Shown here in pieces: positions 3,309-10,600 of a stretch of DNA of 64,000 nt. Below the pieces are notes generated by a model, which did no database searches, had not been told where the DNA came from, and worked only from the letters and a program-made list of their open reading frames with translations. Numbering within the stretch: the stretch's first letter is position 1; each line of letters opens with the position of its first letter. The DNA is taken from the IMG/VR virus record IMGVR_UViG_3300042349_000626; one strand, written 5' to 3'. This DNA comes from a virus (Duplodnaviria; Heunggongvirae; Uroviricota; Caudoviricetes). The position numbers and the translations under genes are program-made.

Positions 3309-4504
3309 TGTCTGTAACTAACAAACCCGCTTCAAATCCAGATGTAACAAAAGGAACTGTTCCTAATGCTGATGGAGATCTTTCTTTTAAATATGGCGAA
3401 GGTCCAATACCAGATTATTCTTATCTGTTAGGCAAATGGACTCTTACTACGTATACATTTCCTGAAGATGGATCTTCTGGCTTTGCTATAACTGATGGTA
3501 AATCAGCATTCCACATAGACAATCAGGGAAACATAATCTTTGGCACTGGGTCTCCATCTCAAAGTGGATGTGGTGGCAAACTGATTATGAAATCAGAAGC
3601 ACAACTACAAAAAACAGGATCTGTTTCAATTGAAGTTCAAGGAAGACCAGACGACGGTTCTGTAAAAAAGGAAACGAATGCTACTGGAGGCATAAGTGAA
3701 ACTAAACTGCCTGCTTACTCGCTAAAAGTATATGGAGATGTGTTAATTGAATGTATTGGTGGTGAAGCAGTTATAAAAGGAGAAAACATTACCTTAAATG
3801 CTGCTAGCACACTTAATTTAAATTCAGGAAAAGATATTAATCTCACGGCAGGTAAAGAGGGTGGTAGAATTAATATGTTTGGTGGAACTTTTTCACTCAA
3901 TACTAGCTTCTTTGAAAAAAATCTGAGTGGTGGTGAATACTCCAAGGGAGCAGGCGAAGTACAAATAGAACAGTACAACCCAAATGCTTCAACATCTGTT
4001 TCAACACCAGGAAGTGTTAATTATACAGTCAATGGTAATTATGATCTCGGAGTTACTGGAGACTATAAACAAATTGTTAATAAGAATTATTCATTGAGCG
4101 TTGATTTAGATTATGCTAGAGAAGTTAAAGGAAATGCCTCAGAAAAAACTGTAGGTAAACAGAAAACATCAATAACTGGAACAAAAATTCGTGAGTCATC
4201 ACAACAAGAGTCATATGTGTTAGAAGTAGGAGCAAATCCAACACCAGAAATAGCTGCTTATAAGGTATCTAGTGGCGGCAAAGTTGAAATGAGTACCACC
4301 ACAGGTGGATTTAAATTTGAGGCTGCTGCTCAAGTAAGCACCATGACACTTGACGAAAAATCTTTCAAGGTAAATGTTGGTAAAGAATTGGGTGTGCTTG
4401 AGATGTCTGAAACGAAAGCAGAATTTTCTTATGGAAAGACATCAAAAATTACACTGGAGCCAGCTAAAATTTCTGTGGTGGCGACACAAATTTACCTAAA
4501 TTGA
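3299..4504 (+). CDS. Gly/Ser/Thr-rich structural protein, possibly beta-helical (baseplate or needle-like)
   Basis: 401-aa ORF overlapping the previous stop. Low-complexity G/S/T/N-rich repeats typical of fibrous virion proteins. Confidence 0.45.
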   Translation: MPIMSVTNKPASNPDVTKGTVPNADGDLSFKYGEGPIPDYSYLLGKWTLTTYTFPEDGSSGFAITDGKSAFHIDNQGNIIFGTGSPSQSGCGGKLIMKSEAQLQKTGSVSIEVQGRPDDGSVKKETNATGGISETKLPAYSLKVYGDVLIECIGGEAVIKGENITLNAASTLNLNSGKDINLTAGKEGGRINMFGGTFSLNTSFFEKNLSGGEYSKGAGEVQIEQYNPNASTSVSTPGSVNYTVNGNYDLGVTGDYKQIVNKNYSLSVDLDYAREVKGNASEKTVGKQKTSITGTKIRESSQQESYVLEVGANPTPEIAAYKVSSGGKVEMSTTTGGFKFEAAAQVSTMTLDEKSFKVNVGKELGVLEMSETKAEFSYGKTSKITLEPAKISVVATQIYLN

Positions 4505-4990: not shown

Positions 4991-5122
4991 ATGAAAGTTC
5001 CAAATTGGCAACACCACAGCAAAAAAGAACAGAAGCGTACCCTCAAGCCCCAAGCATTGAGAGCTGCCAGAAAGCGTAGGCAGGCACTGAAAAACCTCTT
5101 GACAGCAACGGGACGAATATGA
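4991..5122 (+). CDS. small highly basic protein (43 aa, K/R-rich)
   Basis: ATG preceded by GAGG. Not in the track because it is under 60 aa. Sits between the promoter and the tRNAs. Confidence 0.25.
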   Translation: MKVPNWQHHSKKEQKRTLKPQALRAARKRRQALKNLLTATGRI

Positions 5123-5146
5123 TACCATAGATTGGTATCAATTCAA

Positions 5147-5236
5147 GCGAGTGAGACTTGGTAGTCAGAGGAGTCTTATAAACTCTTTCCGCCAGATTAG
5201 CGGCTTTGAGGTGGTTCGAATCCACCCACTCGTACC
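5147..5236 (+). ncRNA. tRNA-like structured RNA: canonical T-arm (GGTGG-TTCGAAT-CCACC), 7-bp acceptor pairing, long variable-arm hairpin; D-arm and anticodon arm do not fit a canonical fold (loop CTTATAA would give UAU)
   Basis: Hand fold. Acceptor GCGAGTG/CACTCGT. The D-region contains TTGGTAG as in Leu-type D-loops. The anticodon arm needs a 6-7 bp stem or a 9-nt loop. Confidence 0.35.
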
Positions 5237-5238
5237 TT

Positions 5239-5311
5239 GCTCCTTTAGCAATCTGGCGAATGCACCGAACTCATAATTCGGCTAAGGTGGGTTCGATCCC
5301 CTCAAGGAGCA
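5239..5311 (+). tRNA. tRNA-Met (CAU), elongator type; could instead be a tRNA-Ile2 (lysidine) gene
   Basis: Perfect acceptor GCTCCTT/AAGGAGC. Anticodon stem CCGAA/TTCGG with loop CTCATAA. T-loop TTCGATC. 5-nt variable loop. Confidence 0.8.
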
Positions 5312-5312
5312 C

Positions 5313-5341
5313 TTGACAATCTGAGCAAAACCTGCTACAAT
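5313..5341 (+). promoter_or_regulatory. internal sigma70-like promoter TTGACA-17-TACAAT overlapping the 3' end of tRNA-Met
   Basis: Consensus spacing. AAAACCTGCTACA motif is shared with the 59601-59641 element. Confidence 0.5.
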
Positions 5342-5355
5342 TGTCACATACACAT

Positions 5356-5428
5356 GCCCGTGTAGTCCAACGGCAGAGACAGGGGACTTAAAATCCCTCC
5401 AGTGTCGGTTCGAATCCGACCACGGGTA
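5356..5428 (+). tRNA. tRNA with anticodon UAA (Leu-type anticodon arm GGGGA-CTTAAAA-TCCCT) but a short 5-nt variable loop
   Basis: Acceptor GCCCGTG/CACGGGT. 3-bp D-stem. T-arm GTCGG-TTCGAAT-CCGAC. Discriminator A. Confidence 0.65.
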
Positions 5429-5459
5429 TTCCACTAAATAAAACGAGTGGAAAAAAGTA

Positions 5460-5726
5460 ATGAAATACACACTTTCTCAATCATATTGCTTTTATATGGG
5501 CGAGGTAGTTCGTATGTATTTCATACAGGGTATGCCATATACCTTTGACGAACTTCCTGCCCTCATACAAGACCATCCTTCTGTCCAAACTGAAGCCCTA
5601 TCTAATAGGGATTTTGATGATGAAGACATGTTTATTTGGTCTAATTATTTGATGATGGAAGAGGCTCATCCGCTAATGTTTGAATTGGAATTTGAAAATC
5701 CTGAGTTACTACCTAAAGATGATTAA
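5460..5726 (+). CDS. hypothetical protein
   Basis: 88-aa ORF inside the tRNA cluster. Stop overlaps the next start (GATGATTAA). Confidence 0.4.
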   Translation: MKYTLSQSYCFYMGEVVRMYFIQGMPYTFDELPALIQDHPSVQTEALSNRDFDDEDMFIWSNYLMMEEAHPLMFELEFENPELLPKDD

Positions 5727-6243
5727 AGAATTTTTTAGATTAATCGAAGGACGATTCGAAAACAAAATCCAAGCATTTTCTAACCCAAGCAAGTATGCCT
5801 TTATTAGGGTAACCCATGTGAACTTGGGTGGTGGTTTGATTTATGGAGAACAAGCATACAATTATCAGTTAAACAAACCTTATCGTCAGTTTGTTCTTCA
5901 GCCCAAAGAAGAAAACGGACAAATTCATATCTATAATTATGAATTGATTGATAAAGAAAACTATACTGGTTTTAAAAGGCTTGACGAAATCGACCAGGAT
6001 GTGCTAAAATTAAAAAGTGGTTGTGACGTGTTCATGACTCCCAAAAACAATTCCTTCGTGGGTGGTATCCAGGGATGTAATTGTATGGTAGACTGGAATG
6101 GTCGTCAAACCTACCTCCAAAACGAAATTGAGATAACACCAACTCATTATTACGTTATGGATCGTGGATTCTGTGCTGAACATAAGCATCAGCTTTGGGG
6201 TTCTAAATACGGTAGGTTTGAATTTGTTAGAATGCCTGAGTAG
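5719..6243 (+). CDS. cpeT: CpcT/CpeT-family phycobilin lyase homolog
   Basis: Motifs NKIQAFSNPSKYAFIRV, GEQAYNY, PYRQFVL, GCDVFM, FEFVR match the CpcT/DUF1001 pattern as I remember it. Confidence 0.7.
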   Translation: MIKEFFRLIEGRFENKIQAFSNPSKYAFIRVTHVNLGGGLIYGEQAYNYQLNKPYRQFVLQPKEENGQIHIYNYELIDKENYTGFKRLDEIDQDVLKLKSGCDVFMTPKNNSFVGGIQGCNCMVDWNGRQTYLQNEIEITPTHYYVMDRGFCAEHKHQLWGSKYGRFEFVRMPE

Positions 6244-6307
6244 CTCAGCTGGATAGAGCAACGGTTTTGTAAACCGTAGGTCGTCGGTTCAAGTCCGACC
6301 TTAGGCT
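6234..6307 (+). tRNA. tRNA-Thr (UGU)
   Basis: Acceptor GCCTGAG/CTTAGGC. D-arm GCTC..GAGC. Anticodon arm ACGGT-TTTGTAA-ACCGT. T-arm GTCGG-TTCAAGT-CCGAC. Confidence 0.85.
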
Positions 6308-6411
6308 CTCGCTTTCACATGGACTGGAAATATCTGGTCGTAGTGATAGCGTTCAATGTAGGAACCAAAACCTCTCCTTGGTCTTAGTATTCTGTGTCCA
6401 AGTGAAGTAAA

Positions 6412-6441
6412 GAGGGGGGCTTAAGGTGATGCTCCCCCCTC
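6412..6441. other. strong GC hairpin (GAGGGGGG-14 nt loop-CCCCCCTC) with no U-run
   Basis: 8-bp G/C stem between tRNA-Thr and the tRNA-like element. Possible RNA processing or structure signal. Confidence 0.4.
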
Positions 6442-6450
6442 CTACCACAA

Positions 6451-6522
6451 CTTCTGGTAGTCTATTGGTAAGGACGGGTGGACAACACACATGGAAACTA
6501 GGTTCGATTCCTAGACAGAGGA
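6451..6522 (+). ncRNA. degenerate tRNA-like element (pseudo-tRNA or stable small RNA): good D-arm and T-arm, anticodon arm not foldable
   Basis: Acceptor 6 of 7 pairs. D-arm GTCT-ATTGGTAA-GGAC. T-arm CTAGG-TTCGATT-CCTAG. The 17 nt where the anticodon arm should be (GGTGGACAACACACATG) make at most 3 pairs. Confidence 0.3.
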
Positions 6523-6640
6523 AATAAGGTAAGGAAAGTAAAAGGAGCATGGGAACCGTATGGAGATACCGCACCTGCCTTGTTAACACCCCTCAAGCCT
6601 ATCTCGGGACGCCGAATGATGCTCAAACAGAGGGGTCACT

Positions 6641-6720
6641 GCCCAAGTGGTGAAATTGGTATACACGCATGACTTAGGATCATGTGCTTCGGCGTGGAGG
6701 TTCGAGTCCTCTCTTGGGCA
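6641..6720 (+). tRNA. tRNA-Leu (UAG), class II
   Basis: Acceptor GCCCAAG/CTTGGGC. D-loop AAATTGGTATA. Anticodon arm CATGA-CTTAGGA-TCATG. 11-nt variable arm. T-arm GGAGG-TTCGAGT-CCTCT. Discriminator A. Confidence 0.85.
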
Positions 6721-6759
6721 CTTCGGATTACAAATCCGAAATTCAAAAACTAAATACAT

Positions 6760-6815
6760 GAAATCGGGAAAAAAATTCCCGGTAAAAAATCGTCAAAAAA
6801 GTTGAGGGTAAAAAA
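6760..6815. repeat. ~55-bp A-tract/hairpin element, copy 2 (contains the CGGGAAAAAAATTCCCG hairpin)
   Basis: Homologous to 4524-4580. Directly upstream of ORF 6814. Confidence 0.5.
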
Positions 6816-6957
6816 TGAGCTTACTTTCTAAGAAAGACCATGAAATGGTCATCGAGGCACTAGAAACCCTAATCCAAACAAAGGAGGAATCTGACGATAA
6901 ATTTGAATACTATAATTTACTTAATTGGGTAAAATTGAAGCAAAAAGACAAATTCTG
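6814..6957 (+). CDS. small hypothetical protein (47 aa)
   Basis: ORF downstream of the repeated element. Under 60 aa, so absent from the track. Confidence 0.3.
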
Positions 6958-6965
6958 ACTTAATC

Positions 6966-7382
6966 ATGTCACTTCTTGAAATTCTATTCAATGAAAAATC
7001 TGAAATAGCTGTACAAACCAGAGTTTGTAGGTATTGTAAAAAAGAAAAACCATTAACTAAAGATTTCTATCACAGAAATCATTCTACCCAAAATGGTTTT
7101 AGATATGAATGTAAAGAATGTAGAAAACCGGGAGGTGTTAAAGACCCTTCAGCTTCTAAGAAATTGAAGAAAAAATATAATCTAAAAACACCACTCCTAG
7201 GCACTCCTTGTGCTTGTTGTGGAAAAACTGATCAACTGCTGGTTTGTGATCATATTCATGGAACTGAAACCATTCGTGGTTTTATTTGTGATAATTGTAA
7301 TGTTGGTATTGGGAGACTTGGTGATAGTATTGAAGGCGTAAAAAAGGCACTTAATTATCTTGAGGGAAATTATTTGACATAA
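6966..7382 (+). CDS. HNH homing endonuclease with N-terminal zinc ribbon, inserted in the tRNA cluster
   Basis: CRYCKKEKPL..GFRYECKEC zinc ribbon plus CDHIHG...GFICDNCN HNH motif. AT-rich. Lies between tRNA genes. Confidence 0.7.
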   Translation: MSLLEILFNEKSEIAVQTRVCRYCKKEKPLTKDFYHRNHSTQNGFRYECKECRKPGGVKDPSASKKLKKKYNLKTPLLGTPCACCGKTDQLLVCDHIHGTETIRGFICDNCNVGIGRLGDSIEGVKKALNYLEGNYLT

Positions 7383-7385
7383 CAA

Positions 7386-7457
7386 TGGAGTGTAGCTCAG
7401 TGGTAGAGCGGTCGGCTGTTAACCGATTGGTCGTAGGTTCGAATCCCACCACTCCAG
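7386..7457 (+). tRNA. tRNA-Asn (GUU)
   Basis: Acceptor TGGAGTG/CACTCCA. D-arm GCTC-AGTGGTA-GAGC. Anticodon arm GTCGG-CTGTTAA-CCGAT. T-loop TTCGAAT with one T-stem mismatch. Confidence 0.85.
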
Positions 7458-7460
7458 TTT

Positions 7461-7543
7461 GGGTAGGTGTCCGAGTGGTTTAAGGAACCTGACTGTAAAT
7501 CAGGCGGCTCTGTCCAACGTTGGTTCAAATCCAACCCTGCCCA
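7461..7543 (+). tRNA. tRNA-Tyr (GUA), class II with 14-nt variable arm
   Basis: Acceptor GGGTAGG/CCTGCCC. Anticodon arm CCTGA-CTGTAAA-TCAGG. T-arm GTTGG-TTCAAAT-CCAAC. Confidence 0.85.
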
Positions 7544-7587
7544 TTGGCGATACTGCCAAACCAGAATCCCTTCCGTGTGCTTTAAAA

Positions 7588-7612
7588 CCTCTCCTTCGGG
7601 AGGGGTTTTATT
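7588..7612 (+). terminator. intrinsic terminator (CCTCTCC-TTCG-GGAGGGG then TTTTATT) ending the tRNA cluster
   Basis: 7-bp stem with UUCG tetraloop plus a U-run. Confidence 0.6.
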
Positions 7613-7657: not shown

Positions 7658-10600
7658 ATGGCTCTTACAAGACTTGATAATCTGTATTCAAGCAAAACTG
7701 GTAAATATCTATATGTTTCTCCAGACGATTTTAATGCTACTGATGAATTAGATAATAGAGGTAATTCTCCTCTACGTCCATTCAAAACAATTCAAAGAGC
7801 CTTTATTGAAGTAGCAAGATATTCGTATCTTCCTGGTCAAGATAACGATAGATTTGACCAGTTTAGCATCATGTTGATGCCTGGCGATCACTACATTGAC
7901 AACAGACCTGGATTAATTGAAGTTGATCGTGGCGAAAAGCAACGCTATTTTGATGCCAAAGAACTTATTATTGCAAATAGACAAGAAATTATTGATAGAG
8001 CATTTGGCGAAATTGCCATCGAATATGATGAAGCTGCCTGGGGTACTGATTGGGTAGTTCCTGGCGATCCTATTAATAGCGATTTGAACAGAGGATTTGA
8101 CTCATACCGTCTGATTCAAAAAAATCGTCAAGAAATTGTTGACGGTGCTTTTGCTCAAATTGCTATTACACACCCGACTTTTACAAATCCAAATTCAGCT
8201 AAATGCCAGCGTGATATTGGATATTTTGTTGATGCAGTATCTTTGGATGTATTGCTAGGTGGTGGAAATCGTTATACACGTAAGTTTTTACAAAATTATT
8301 TTAATAATTCTGGAACTGCTTGGATCGATAATGGTCTTCAGGGAGAAGAAGCAGAATCTACTACAGCATTTAATAAAGCCAGAGATTTGATGAAGGCTGC
8401 TGTAGCGAATCAGCTAACATTTAAAGATCTGACACTCACTATTGATCCTCTTACTGGTTCGAATACAACTGTTAATTCATGTGCTAACATTCAAACTACA
8501 ATTGCCACTCTTACAGCAATTGTCACAGATGTAATTAATGATGGCAATTTAGAATATCTTCCTGAAGAGACTATCGAAACAATCGGTCTTGGTGAATCTA
8601 AGTGTAAAAGAGATATTGGTTATATTGTTGATGCTGTTGCTGCTGACCTCGCTAATGGCGGAAATGCCAATATTGTGGCTGCTGCCAAATCATATTTTAC
8701 AAAAGAAGGTCTTCCTATTTCGAATGGTCTTTTAGGAGAAGAAGCACAATCTGTTATTGCTTTTAATGCTGCTAAAGTAATGATGAAAAAAGCTGTAACC
8801 AATCAGCTTTATTCTAAAGATCTGAATATTCTTTCTGGTCCAGCTGTTTATAATTCTGGTGGTCCAGTAGTTCCAAATCTACCATCAGGTAATGTTGCCA
8901 CTTGTGTCGATGTTCAAGCAACTATTGATACTTTAATCGGTATTATAACGACTGCTATTTCTGATGGAGACATCACAAGTCTTGCTAATGTTCAAATTAC
9001 AGGAGACATTCCTGTATTTAATTACAACAGAGCACTTGAAGAGTGGCAAGACAACTCAATTCTTGATCTTAGCAATCCAGATAACGTTCTATACAAATTT
9101 AACGCTTCTACTGGTGGTGCTATCGTTCCTAGAGGTTGTTCTCTAATCGGTTATGATCTTCGTAGAACAATTGTACGTCCTCTCTATGTACCCGATCCTG
9201 CTGACGGAACACAAGAAAGAACTTCGATCTTTAATCTAACTGGTGGTTGCTATATTTGGCAGTTTACTATTAAAGATGGTGATCTTTCTGAGAATTCTCC
9301 TTTATATGACAACAACGATAAAGTAGGTAAGGTTTATTTCCAAAAGGGTAACAATACTCAATTAGCAATTCCTGAGTATTCTCACCACAAGATTACTATC
9401 ATGACTTATGCCGATCTAGATGATCTAGATCTGTATTACAATAAAGTCGCTACTGCTTTCGCTTTATTCCAACCAACAATTGATGATGGTGATTTAGAAG
9501 CATTACCACAAGAAAATAGAATTGTTGGTCCTCTTTCTGACACTAGAAGTATTGTAAATATTCGTCTTAAGCAGTCAACAAATCCATCCAGAACTACGAT
9601 TGTAGCTACTACTAAAATTGCTCATGGATATTTTGTAAACCAGTATGTTGCTATTGTAGATAACGGTCTTAATGATCTACTAAATGGTACTTTTAAAGTA
9701 ACTGCTGTTGATCAAGAAGATCCAAGAATATTTGAGTATCAAGTTGCTACTACACCAGCAATTTTAGGTCTTGATATTAATGAAAACGGATACAGCAATT
9801 CAACAACTCCATCATTAAATCTTAGCGCCAGAGCACAAGCAGAAATTGACTCCGTAGAATCTGCTTCGCCATACGTATTCAACTGCTCGATTAGATCCAC
9901 CTGGGGTCAGTGTGGTATGTGGGCGGATGGATCTAAGGCAACTGGATTCAAGTCGATGGTTGTTGCCCAGTATACGGGTGTTTCTCTACAAAGAGATGAT
10001 AGAGCGTTTATTCGCTATGATGAATTTAGTAATACTTGGAATCAGGCGTCACTTGTAGATGCTTTTGCTACAATTCCTTATCACAGCAAAGGTGATGCTT
10101 ACTGGAAAGATGACTGGAGAAACTTCCACATTCGTGCTTCAGATGATGCTTTCATTCAGTGTGTTTCGGTATTCGCTGTAGGCTTCTTTGATCACTTCTT
10201 AATGGAATCTGGTGGTGACATGTCCATCACCAACTCCAACTCCAACTTCGGTAACACTTCACTTCATGCTGTAGGATTTAAAGGATTCTCATTCAACCAG
10301 GATAAGGGTGGTTATATTACTGATATTATTCCTGTAAAGGAGATTGATGACAGTGCTTTTAACGAAGTAGAACTAAAGTACTATTCAATTGCTTTACAAG
10401 TATCAAAAGATGTAGCCAATCAAACCAAACTTTATTATGGTAGCGATGATTCCTATGATCCATTTGATAGACCATCTACATCAATTAGTGGATATAGACT
10501 AGGTGCTAAAACAGATGAAAAGATTTATCTTAAGTTAAAATCACCTGCCGGAACTACGGAAGAATACTTCTCTTCAGTTACACCAAACGGATTTAAAAAG

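Follow-up and report, generated by a model that had tools for sequence, protein, structure and literature searches.

Does a phage transfer RNA (tRNA) gene that departs from the textbook cloverleaf mark a gene in decay, or an RNA with another job? The question is raised by a tRNA cluster at positions 5147-7544 of a 64,000-nucleotide stretch of viral DNA (IMG/VR virus record IMGVR_UViG_3300042349_000626; Caudoviricetes), the whole of which is referred to here as the window. ARAGORN calls eight elements in the cluster, labelled Ile-UAU (5147-5236), Met-CAU, Leu-UAA, Thr-UGU, Leu-CAA (6451-6522), Leu-UAG, Asn-GUU and Tyr-GUA. Six of the eight pass the Rfam tRNA model (RF00005, gathering threshold 29 bits), in agreement with an earlier reading of the sequence (the original prediction), which had folded the same six by hand and whose coordinates hold. 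The Ile-UAU and Leu-CAA calls, elements A and B, fail the model; the Leu-UAA call, element C, passes it with a short variable loop. The three elements lie as follows.

5147..5234, plus strand: element A, a noncanonical tRNA(UAU) (ARAGORN, fold, covariation)

5356..5428, plus strand: element C, a tRNA-Leu(UAA) with a 5-nucleotide variable loop (ARAGORN, Rfam)

6451..6522, plus strand: element B, a putative tRNA mimic without an anticodon (ARAGORN, homologs, covariation)

From comparison of homologs, each of these three odd members appears to be a conserved phage-borne RNA family. Their occurrence is far beyond chance: A (sought with an 18-nucleotide D-arm pattern) and B are each carried by at least 120 IMG/VR contigs, and C-like tRNAs were found by BLAST in 73 phage records, where they are mostly annotated as tRNA-Leu. 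For the cluster as a whole we lean towards a model in which A would decode AUA, C would be charged by leucyl-tRNA synthetase (LeuRS) and B would mimic a tRNA body.

Element A has a 7-base-pair (bp) acceptor stem (5147-5153/5227-5233) with G1.U72, followed by discriminator A73 at 5234. A single nucleotide, A8, separates this stem from the D arm, GAC(U)-UGGU-(A)GUC (5155-5166). The anticodon stem has 7 bp (5168-5174/5182-5188) and carries the loop CUUAUAA (5175-5181, anticodon 5177-5179). Next come an extra arm (5189-5203), with a stem of 4-5 bp (4 bp in the window) and the loop CAGAUUA (5193-5199), a tail, CUUUGA (5204-5209), and a canonical T arm (5210-5226). The perfect acceptor and T arms, long variable hairpin and odd D region noticed originally are all confirmed. 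The anticodon arm, by contrast, had been thought not to fold canonically, and to need a 9-nucleotide loop or a 6-7-bp stem, with a possible quadruplet anticodon; the 9-nucleotide loop and the quadruplet are out, as a 7-bp stem with a 7-nucleotide loop covaries and belongs to the minimum-free-energy fold, which is the same as the comparative fold.

In an alignment of 53 distinct copies with one indel, 99.7% of pair cells hold standard pairs and compensatory changes are seen at 15 of the 27 pairs. The covariation score was not reached in any of 500 column shuffles, and slid registers drop to about 40% paired. Every helix but the D arm covaries, and three of the four extra-arm pairs are compensatory, so that A has the base-paired long variable arm of class II tRNAs. 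Among 143 copies, all keep TTATA (U33, the UAU anticodon and A37) and 135 keep CAGATTA in the extra-arm loop. A second scan, which used only the extra arm and T loop and left the D region outside the pattern, found that region identical in 126 of 127 copies. With CUUAUAA or a variant on a covarying stem, A has the U33 and purine 37 of a decoder loop. The stems, then, vary with compensation, but the D region and the two loops do not, a pattern that we take to mark a functional RNA making specific contacts.

The best Rfam match of A is the tRNA-Sec model (RF01852), at 34.1 bits against a threshold of 47, and RF00005 gives no match. Like tRNA-Sec and the allo-tRNAs (PMC5389517), A has a long extra arm, an anticodon stem of more than 5 bp and a compact UGGU-type D arm; unlike them, it has acceptor/T stems of 7/5 and not 8/5, 9/4, 8/4 or 9/3 bp, and the anticodon UAU, not UCA. 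We rejected tRNA-Sec on its score, its anticodon and its 7/5 arrangement, which is not a 13-bp branch, and allo-tRNA (8/4 or 9/3) on the covariation of both the 7-bp acceptor and the 5-bp T stem; by direct reading, A8 is unable to pair with C80. A kissing contact of the extra-arm loop (CCAGAUU) with the D loop (AAUCUGG) of the tRNA that follows is a perfect match in the window, but was dropped, as it is lost in the cyanophages S-SRM01 and S-SKS1 and shows no covariation. Nor was covariation seen for a pairing between the extra-arm loop and the T loop of A itself when the latter changes.

Element A is present but unannotated in S-SRM01 (95.5% identity) and S-SKS1 (86%; BLAST), and the order A, tRNA(CAU), short tRNA-Leu(UAA) is common to the window and both phages. 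The window and S-SRM01 belong to the Kyanoviridae, and S-SKS1 to the genus Llyrvirus, for which the record lists no family; the recurrence of the trio in the same order in different taxa suggests that the block has been transferred horizontally. In the window, tRNA(CAU) begins 4 nucleotides past A's discriminator, and a CAU tRNA is most often the first tRNA called after A in A-bearing contigs. A scan of one genome per prokaryotic species gave only two true copies of A, both on contigs of metagenome-assembled genomes; these contigs hold arrays of 16-20 tRNAs and are probably phage. We also found two deletion derivatives in which the following tRNA(CAU) is joined directly to A's 5' half, anticodon stem included. 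These fusions are true pseudogene forms, for which deletion between short CC repeats is the apparent origin.

Element B has a tRNA body with a different middle. The acceptor stem has 6 bp plus G.A (6451-6456/6516-6521), the D arm (6460-6475) has the stem GUCU/GGAC, and the T arm spans 6498-6514. Between the D and T arms stands a hairpin (6476-6491) with the pentaloop GACAA (6481-6485) and a bulged A at 6489. Written in order, this region reads p1 p2 s1 s2 s3 - GACAA - s3' s2' s1' - A - q2 q3. The stem has 3 bp, or 4-5 bp counting pairs beyond the bulged A, and was independently predicted by RNAalifold. The s pairs covary (GCA/UGC, GUG/CAC, GCG/CGC, CCC/GGG), as does p2:q2 (G-C, C-G, A-U), and the bulged A is invariant. 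The pair that closes the 5-nucleotide loop is Watson-Crick and covarying (G-C in 31, A-U in 16 and C-G in 11), the loop is GACAA in 117 of 125 copies, and the 22-nucleotide D arm is almost invariant. Overall, 61 distinct copies align without gaps, with 97.6% of cells paired and compensatory changes at 8 of the 20 pairs, a result that no shuffle out of 500 equalled. A fold computed from the single window sequence differs from this one, but is specific to the window variant and absent from the homologs.

The original prediction was right in finding no anticodon stem in B, which lacks the 7-nucleotide anticodon loop of a functional decoder, but the region is structured, its covarying stem being capped by GACAA. 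On RF00005, B scores 27.8 bits with the anticodon arm skipped, and a divergent copy in locus L036 scores 39.6. ARAGORN, which finds a standard cloverleaf with a clear anticodon in A despite the earlier hand fold, finds none in B; it labels B homologs inconsistently, as Leu-CAA, as His-AUG or with a two-base anticodon, or passes over them. We rejected a 7-nucleotide loop with anticodon ACA, since 32:38 covary as a Watson-Crick pair and the middle base is C or U. Charging by the histidine rule (G-1:C73) is out, as position -1 is A or U and the discriminator varies, and charging by the alanine and transfer-messenger RNA rule (G3.U70) is out, as pair 3:70 is U-A in 60 of the 61 variants. The discriminator is A in 77, U in 36, C in 8 and G in 4 of 125 copies, which argues against charging by any synthetase that reads position 73.

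Element B is unannotated in DSL-LC03, S-RIM32, S-CREM1, S-RIM8, S-PM2 and S-SZBM1, six distinct cyanophages from several Kyanoviridae genera, at 78-100% identity. It always lies within tRNA clusters and, as far as seen, only in cyanophage-like contigs. In some phages it adjoins a neighbouring tRNA at 2-3 nucleotides, a spacing from which we infer that B is processed with the tRNAs around it. On this comparative evidence B appears to be a non-decoding tRNA mimic, a natural 'tRNA scaffold' that presents a hairpin. It would be transcribed and processed like its neighbours, yet would not decode, and would most likely bind or titrate a factor that recognises the tRNA body and not the anticodon. Engineered tRNA scaffolds likewise carry a hairpin in place of the anticodon arm, and the vtRNAs of murine gammaherpesvirus 68 (MHV68), mascRNA and the stable RNAs of the T4 tRNA region are tRNA-shaped, tRNA-processed and non-decoding, as is proposed for B. 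The analogy with the T4 stable RNAs, drawn originally for both A and B, is fair for B only. B is a sequence family of its own, and none of these RNAs is known to carry its GACAA hairpin or Glu-type D arm. The boxB element of phage P22 has a GACAA pentaloop on a short stem, in a GNRA-like fold bound by an arginine-rich peptide. Its loop is identical to that of B, but the context differs, B having a bulged A on the 3' strand, and we take this as resemblance only; T4-like phages are not known to have an N-type antiterminator.

The position of B within tRNA clusters, sometimes 2-3 nucleotides from a neighbour, and its intact acceptor and T arms, which RNase P needs, would also suit a purely cis-acting signal, tRNA-like 'punctuation' for RNase P and 3' processing. 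We consider this unlikely: the real tRNAs flanking B already supply such sites, and the conserved D arm, the covarying middle stem and the fixed bulged A and pentaloop would be superfluous in a punctuation mark.

Element C is a decoder of more ordinary design. It scores 57.3 bits on RF00005 and has the loop CUUAAAA (anticodon 5389-5391), a decoder loop; its variable loop has 5 nucleotides (5399-5403), its D stem 3 bp, and G1.U72 (5356/5427) and A73 are present. The 5-nucleotide variable loop, 3-bp D stem and anticodon loop are as originally described, and the long paired arm of class II tRNAs is indeed absent. What had been called unusual, with its synthetase in question, is however common in phages and carries the LeuRS identity set. 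The phages with C-like tRNAs have hosts that include Vibrio, Lactobacillus, Bacillus, Streptomyces, Pseudomonas, Rhodococcus, Myxococcus and Sinorhizobium. Eight homologs that we checked are 73-75 nucleotides long before any encoded CCA, with anticodon UAA, CAA or UAG, and viral contigs supplied 55 further distinct short tRNA-Leu with UAA, UAG, CAA, GAG or AAG. All members share A73 and the D arm NNCCAAY(N)GGYAGAGNN, and most have G1.U72. Anticodons other than UAA occur in short tRNA-Leu of IMG/VR loci such as L036, L069, L257 and L084, sometimes with several in one array; L036 has four. In loci with at least eight tRNAs, Leu-UAA is short in 11 and long in 15, and no locus has both. UUA is the phage's most used leucine codon and aligns with leucine in homologs.

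The LeuRS of Escherichia coli needs A73, A15-U48, G18G19 and A20a but not the variable arm; truncated tRNA-Leu is still active, and the long arm is kept in tRNA-Leu everywhere but animal mitochondria (PMC9976931). By direct reading, C has A73, A14, A15, GG, an A after N20, and U48. Since C carries this identity set and LeuRS ignores the variable arm, host LeuRS would be expected to charge C by way of A73 and the D-loop/elbow, without regard to the variable arm or anticodon. Animal mitochondrial tRNA-Leu(UUR) and an engineered minimal E. coli tRNA-Leu resemble C in having no long arm and in their A73 and D-loop/elbow identity (PMC9976931), whereas C is a natural phage tRNA for the bacterial cytoplasm. 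Judged by its distribution, the short variable loop of tRNA-Leu appears to be a family trait of many phages, contradicting the textbook rule, and not a local oddity; the phage family would be an exception that the same review (PMC9976931) does not list.

The origin of A is suggested by cyanophage tRNAs with the same anticodon. In S-PM2, the syntenic slots hold a canonical 75-nucleotide tRNA-Ile(UAU), tRNA(CAU) and a class II tRNA-Leu(UAA). The canonical tRNA-Ile(UAU) of S-PM2 and S-CREM1 shares with A the loop CUUAUAA, the G1.U72 and A73 common to A and canonical cyanophage Ile-UAU, and the slot before tRNA(CAU), but is 72-75 nucleotides long and has 4 bp in the D stem, 5 bp in the anticodon stem and 5 nucleotides in the variable loop. 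G1.U72 and A73 also occur in C, in class II tRNA-Leu(UAA) and in the short tRNA-Leu of unrelated phages; G1-C72 is found instead of G1.U72 in the tRNA-Leu(UAG) of the window. Two further loci encode a tRNA(UAU) with the ordinary 4-bp D stem and 5-bp anticodon stem together with A's extra arm and CAGAUUA loop.

L164:6584-6676, minus strand: bridging tRNA(UAU) gene, passes the Rfam tRNA model

L200:4229-4321, minus strand: bridging tRNA(UAU) gene, passes the Rfam tRNA model

The acceptor stem of the L164 gene is that of the S-CREM1 tRNA-Ile(UAU), and from their sequences both genes look like intermediates between ordinary tRNA-Ile(UAU) and A. The simplest history would start from an ordinary cyanophage tRNA-Ile(UAU), which would have gained a hairpin with the fixed loop CAGAUUA in its variable region; the D stem would then have shrunk to 3-4 bp and the anticodon stem grown to 7 bp. 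The D and anticodon stems of A would stack as 3+7, ten layers, equal to the canonical 4+1+5, as a ribosome-competent tRNA needs.

On these grounds A is most likely a working, phage-specific AUA decoder, with isoleucine its most probable, though inferred, amino acid. Isoleucyl-tRNA synthetase (IleRS) of bacteria reads A35, U36, A37, A38 and A73, and position 34 is normally G or lysidine. In A, A35, U36, A37 and A73 are invariant, 38 is mostly A but varies, and 34 is U. IleRS is a class I synthetase, and class I enzymes leave the variable side of the tRNA solvent-exposed; IleRS would therefore tolerate the extra arm, whose fixed loop is a probable handle for a protein or tertiary contact. AUA makes up 12.5 per 1000 codons in the phage. 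In tblastn comparisons with homologs it faces isoleucine in 40%, valine in 17% and leucine in 16% of cases; for AUU the values are 48%, 16% and 11%, and AUA resembles both AUU and AUC. AUA aligns mainly with isoleucine and so retains its standard meaning. Loci with at least eight tRNAs, in a sample selected for carrying A or B and thus biased for co-occurrence counts, contain A alone in 36 cases, canonical Ile-UAU alone in 33, both in 6 and neither in 27, an odds ratio of about 0.14.

Several points weigh against the model, the selection of these loci being one. The six large arrays that hold both A and canonical Ile-UAU indicate that the two may not be fully redundant. The D loop of A lacks the usual A14, and only one nucleotide joins its acceptor and D stems. 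The higher share of leucine opposite AUA than opposite AUU, in a comparison of few proteins, leaves weak room for charging with something other than isoleucine. The identity elements of C were read by hand in our own numbering, and what we propose for B is a class of explanation, not a demonstrated mechanism, its partner being hypothetical. Finally, structure, conservation, covariation, distribution, synteny and codon meaning were observed directly for the three elements, and their expression, processing, charging and binding partners are predictions.

The coexistence of A with canonical Ile-UAU in six arrays and the slight excess of leucine opposite AUA would fit another reading of A, which we regard as distinctly unlikely: a class II body charged with leucine (or serine) by an anticodon-blind synthetase, and inserted at AUA either stochastically or at special sites. 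The nematode nev-tRNA-Ile(UAU) is such a molecule, charged with leucine only; like A, it combines a long variable arm with UAU outside the Leu/Ser/Tyr set and is conserved in its lineage, and it is expressed (PMC3333845). A has the long extra arm, A73 and G18G19 that this reading calls for. However, the nev-tRNAs derive from tRNA-Leu, with its identity set and leucine charging, whereas the lineage of A traces to phage tRNA-Ile(UAU) bodies; A also differs in its reduced D arm, 7-bp anticodon stem and extra arm with a conserved 7-nucleotide loop, and AUA still stands for isoleucine. General mis-insertion at a codon this common and mainly aligned with isoleucine would be costly. The extra arm of A has 0-1 nucleotides on its 5' side and 6 on its 3' side, flanks unlike those of the leucine, serine and tyrosine arms. 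The A14 and A15-U48 of the LeuRS set are absent from the UUGGUA D loop of A, and most copies have C2-G71, an antideterminant for E. coli seryl-tRNA synthetase, and A73 in place of G73 (PMC9976931).

A division of labour between the two hairpins of A, which we find very unlikely, would have the UAU arm decode AUA and the extra arm, as an anticodon-arm look-alike, display the host isoleucine GAU. The GAU arm would be a handle by which IleRS or another anticodon-arm-binding factor might accept, modify or protect A, whose U34 would be a base that host machinery is not tuned for, and B would be the complement, a tRNA body stripped of its anticodon and kept as a protein-binding scaffold. The extra-arm loop does show GAU, the major isoleucine anticodon, with A33 and U37; real Ile-GAU loops read CUGAUAA, and a role as 'anticodon mimic' is unlikely for this arm.

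The setting of the three elements was examined in the surrounding DNA. Open reading frames (ORFs) lie nearly all on one strand, the genome is AT-rich (38.9% GC), and an ORF of 3504 amino acids is located past the tRNA cluster. Whole-region BLAST found no close relative among deposited phages; the matches are tRNA-sized pieces only, all from Synechococcus or Prochlorococcus phages, and these suggest that the source is a T4-like cyanophage without a close sequenced relative. Around A, C and B, the cluster contains the following features.

5099..5128, plus strand: sigma-70-like promoter TTGACA-18-TACCAT, 19 nucleotides 5' of A (consensus match only)

5239..5311, plus strand: tRNA(CAU), Met or Ile2 (ARAGORN, Rfam)

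5313..5341, plus strand: sigma-70-like promoter TTGACA-17-TACAAT, 14 nucleotides 5' of C (consensus match)

5719..6243, plus strand: CpeT/CpcT-family ORF inside the tRNA cluster (context)

6234..6307, plus strand: tRNA-Thr(UGU), canonical (ARAGORN, Rfam)

6358..6445, plus strand: three-helix structured RNA candidate directly 5' of B (no Rfam match)

6589..6636, plus strand: abiF-like RNA hairpin ending 4 nucleotides 5' of tRNA-Leu(UAG) (sub-threshold Rfam score)

6641..6720, plus strand: tRNA-Leu(UAG), canonical class II (ARAGORN, Rfam)

6966..7382, plus strand: Endonuclease VII-family ORF inside the cluster, probably a homing endonuclease (context)

7386..7457, plus strand: tRNA-Asn(GUU), canonical (ARAGORN, Rfam)

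7461..7543, plus strand: tRNA-Tyr(GUA), canonical class II (ARAGORN, Rfam)

7588..7603, plus strand: intrinsic-terminator-like hairpin and T run closing the cluster after Tyr

The promoters 5' of A and C and the terminator 3' of tRNA-Tyr lend support to expression. The cluster would be a promoter-driven tRNA operon that supplies decoders for the A/U-ending codons frequent in the phage, codons expected to be rare in the GC-richer Synechococcus hosts. The window's tRNA(CAU) has C4-G69 and C5-G68, which its homologs lack and which we take to be as in E. coli tRNA-Ile2; it may be either Met or Ile2.

Other RNAs of the cluster are also conserved. The candidate at 6358-6445, between tRNA-Thr and B, has a closing stem GUAGG.../...CCUAC, a hairpin with the fixed loop UAGUAUUCUGUG and a second hairpin. 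Its 18 distinct homologs have 97.6% of cells paired and compensatory changes at 10 of 21 pairs (no shuffle in 500 scored as high), and no Rfam family matches it. The hairpin at 6589-6636 scores 32.6 bits on the abiF model (RF03085, threshold 37) and has an 18-nucleotide insert in its terminal loop; copies in other loci stand above the threshold, at 45-56 bits (L003:3062-3098, L006:2634-2670 and L036:1596-1632), and lie 4-8 nucleotides 5' of tRNAs in S-CREM1, S-SZBM1 and L036. The bacterial abiF RNA is associated with an abiF/Abi_2 gene, and abiF-motif RNA neutralises the AbiF toxin by direct binding (PMC12373285). By analogy, the cyanophage copies may be pseudo-antitoxins. With B also present, the abiF-like RNA suggests that the tRNA clusters of cyanophages have a second use, as places from which small protein-binding RNAs are launched.

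Phages are known to use tRNA arrays to counter defence systems that cleave tRNA. This fact, and the presence in the same cluster of an antitoxin-type abiF-like RNA, which places decoy RNAs in the neighbourhood (PMC12373285), speak for the originally suggested idea that A, B or both are decoys for host anticodon nucleases. We nevertheless hold this to be highly improbable: without any anticodon loop, B cannot mimic an anticodon-nuclease substrate, and A keeps decoder geometry, including its stack length, with an invariant UAU loop, U33 and A37. If, as expected for cyanobacteria, the host reads AUA with a lysidine-modified CAU tRNA, moreover, the UAU loop of A matches no host tRNA.

An equally poor prospect is that B is a mimic derived from tRNA-Glu that acts on enzymes reading the tRNA-Glu core and not the anticodon, such as glutamyl-tRNA reductase, the entry to tetrapyrrole synthesis and hence a link to phage pigment genes, or glutamyl-tRNA synthetase. 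The body of B is closest to phage tRNA-Glu(UUC) (best 24, mean 11.9), its D stem GUCU/GGAC (U11-A24, U13.G22) is that of many phage tRNA-Glu, and the CpeT gene in the cluster is of a bilin-lyase family. However, the margin over tRNA-His (mean 10.8) is small, the acceptor stem is unlike that of tRNA-Glu, and the discriminator varies.

We give next to no credence to the remaining proposal, also made originally, that A and B are decaying pseudogenes left by gene loss in a fast-evolving tRNA cluster: the Rfam tRNA model fails both, GenBank records leave both unannotated, real deletion derivatives fuse A's 5' half to the next tRNA, and Sullivan et al. 2010 (PMC3037559) footnote 'one tRNA as a pseudogene' for cyanophage genomes, but pseudogenes would be expected to pile up stem-breaking changes, whereas the dozens of variants of A and B (53 and 61, neither equalled in 500 shuffles) keep every helix through compensatory changes with invariant loops, B persists at 78-100% identity across several Kyanoviridae genera, and 126 of 127 copies of A agree exactly in the D region.

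Some features of these and related clusters stand apart from the three elements. Directly 3' of tRNA-Leu(UAG), positions 6722-6741 form a perfect hairpin, UUCGGAUU-ACA-AAUCCGAA. In DSL-LC03, B has an HNH endonuclease gene not far upstream, and the clusters of S-RIM32, S-CREM1 and S-SZBM1 include DNA-endonuclease or GIY-YIG genes at other places. The large viral tRNA array of L036 includes Rfam tRNA matches of 112 and 118 nucleotides (8727-8838 and 9129-9246), in which inserts or introns are possible, and two sequences (3439-3522 and 10145-10228) that reach the tRNA-Sec threshold, at 47.0 and 48.4 bits.

In the usual view, phage tRNAs help with codon usage or, lately, serve as spares when defences cleave tRNA. 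The small operon described here contains three members that depart from the textbook cloverleaf and are conserved. The literature that we searched, which leaves out most subscription journals, yielded no description of A, of B or of the short phage tRNA-Leu, and as far as found there A is the first class-II-shaped tRNA(UAU) outside nematodes. Because A and B escape standard annotation, censuses of phage tRNAs and models of codon supply are incomplete. For tRNA engineering, the short tRNA-Leu and the scaffolds that bear a hairpin offer ready parts, and the conserved D region of A, D arm of B, both loop cores of A and pentaloop of B point to specific partners that could be found by pull-down.

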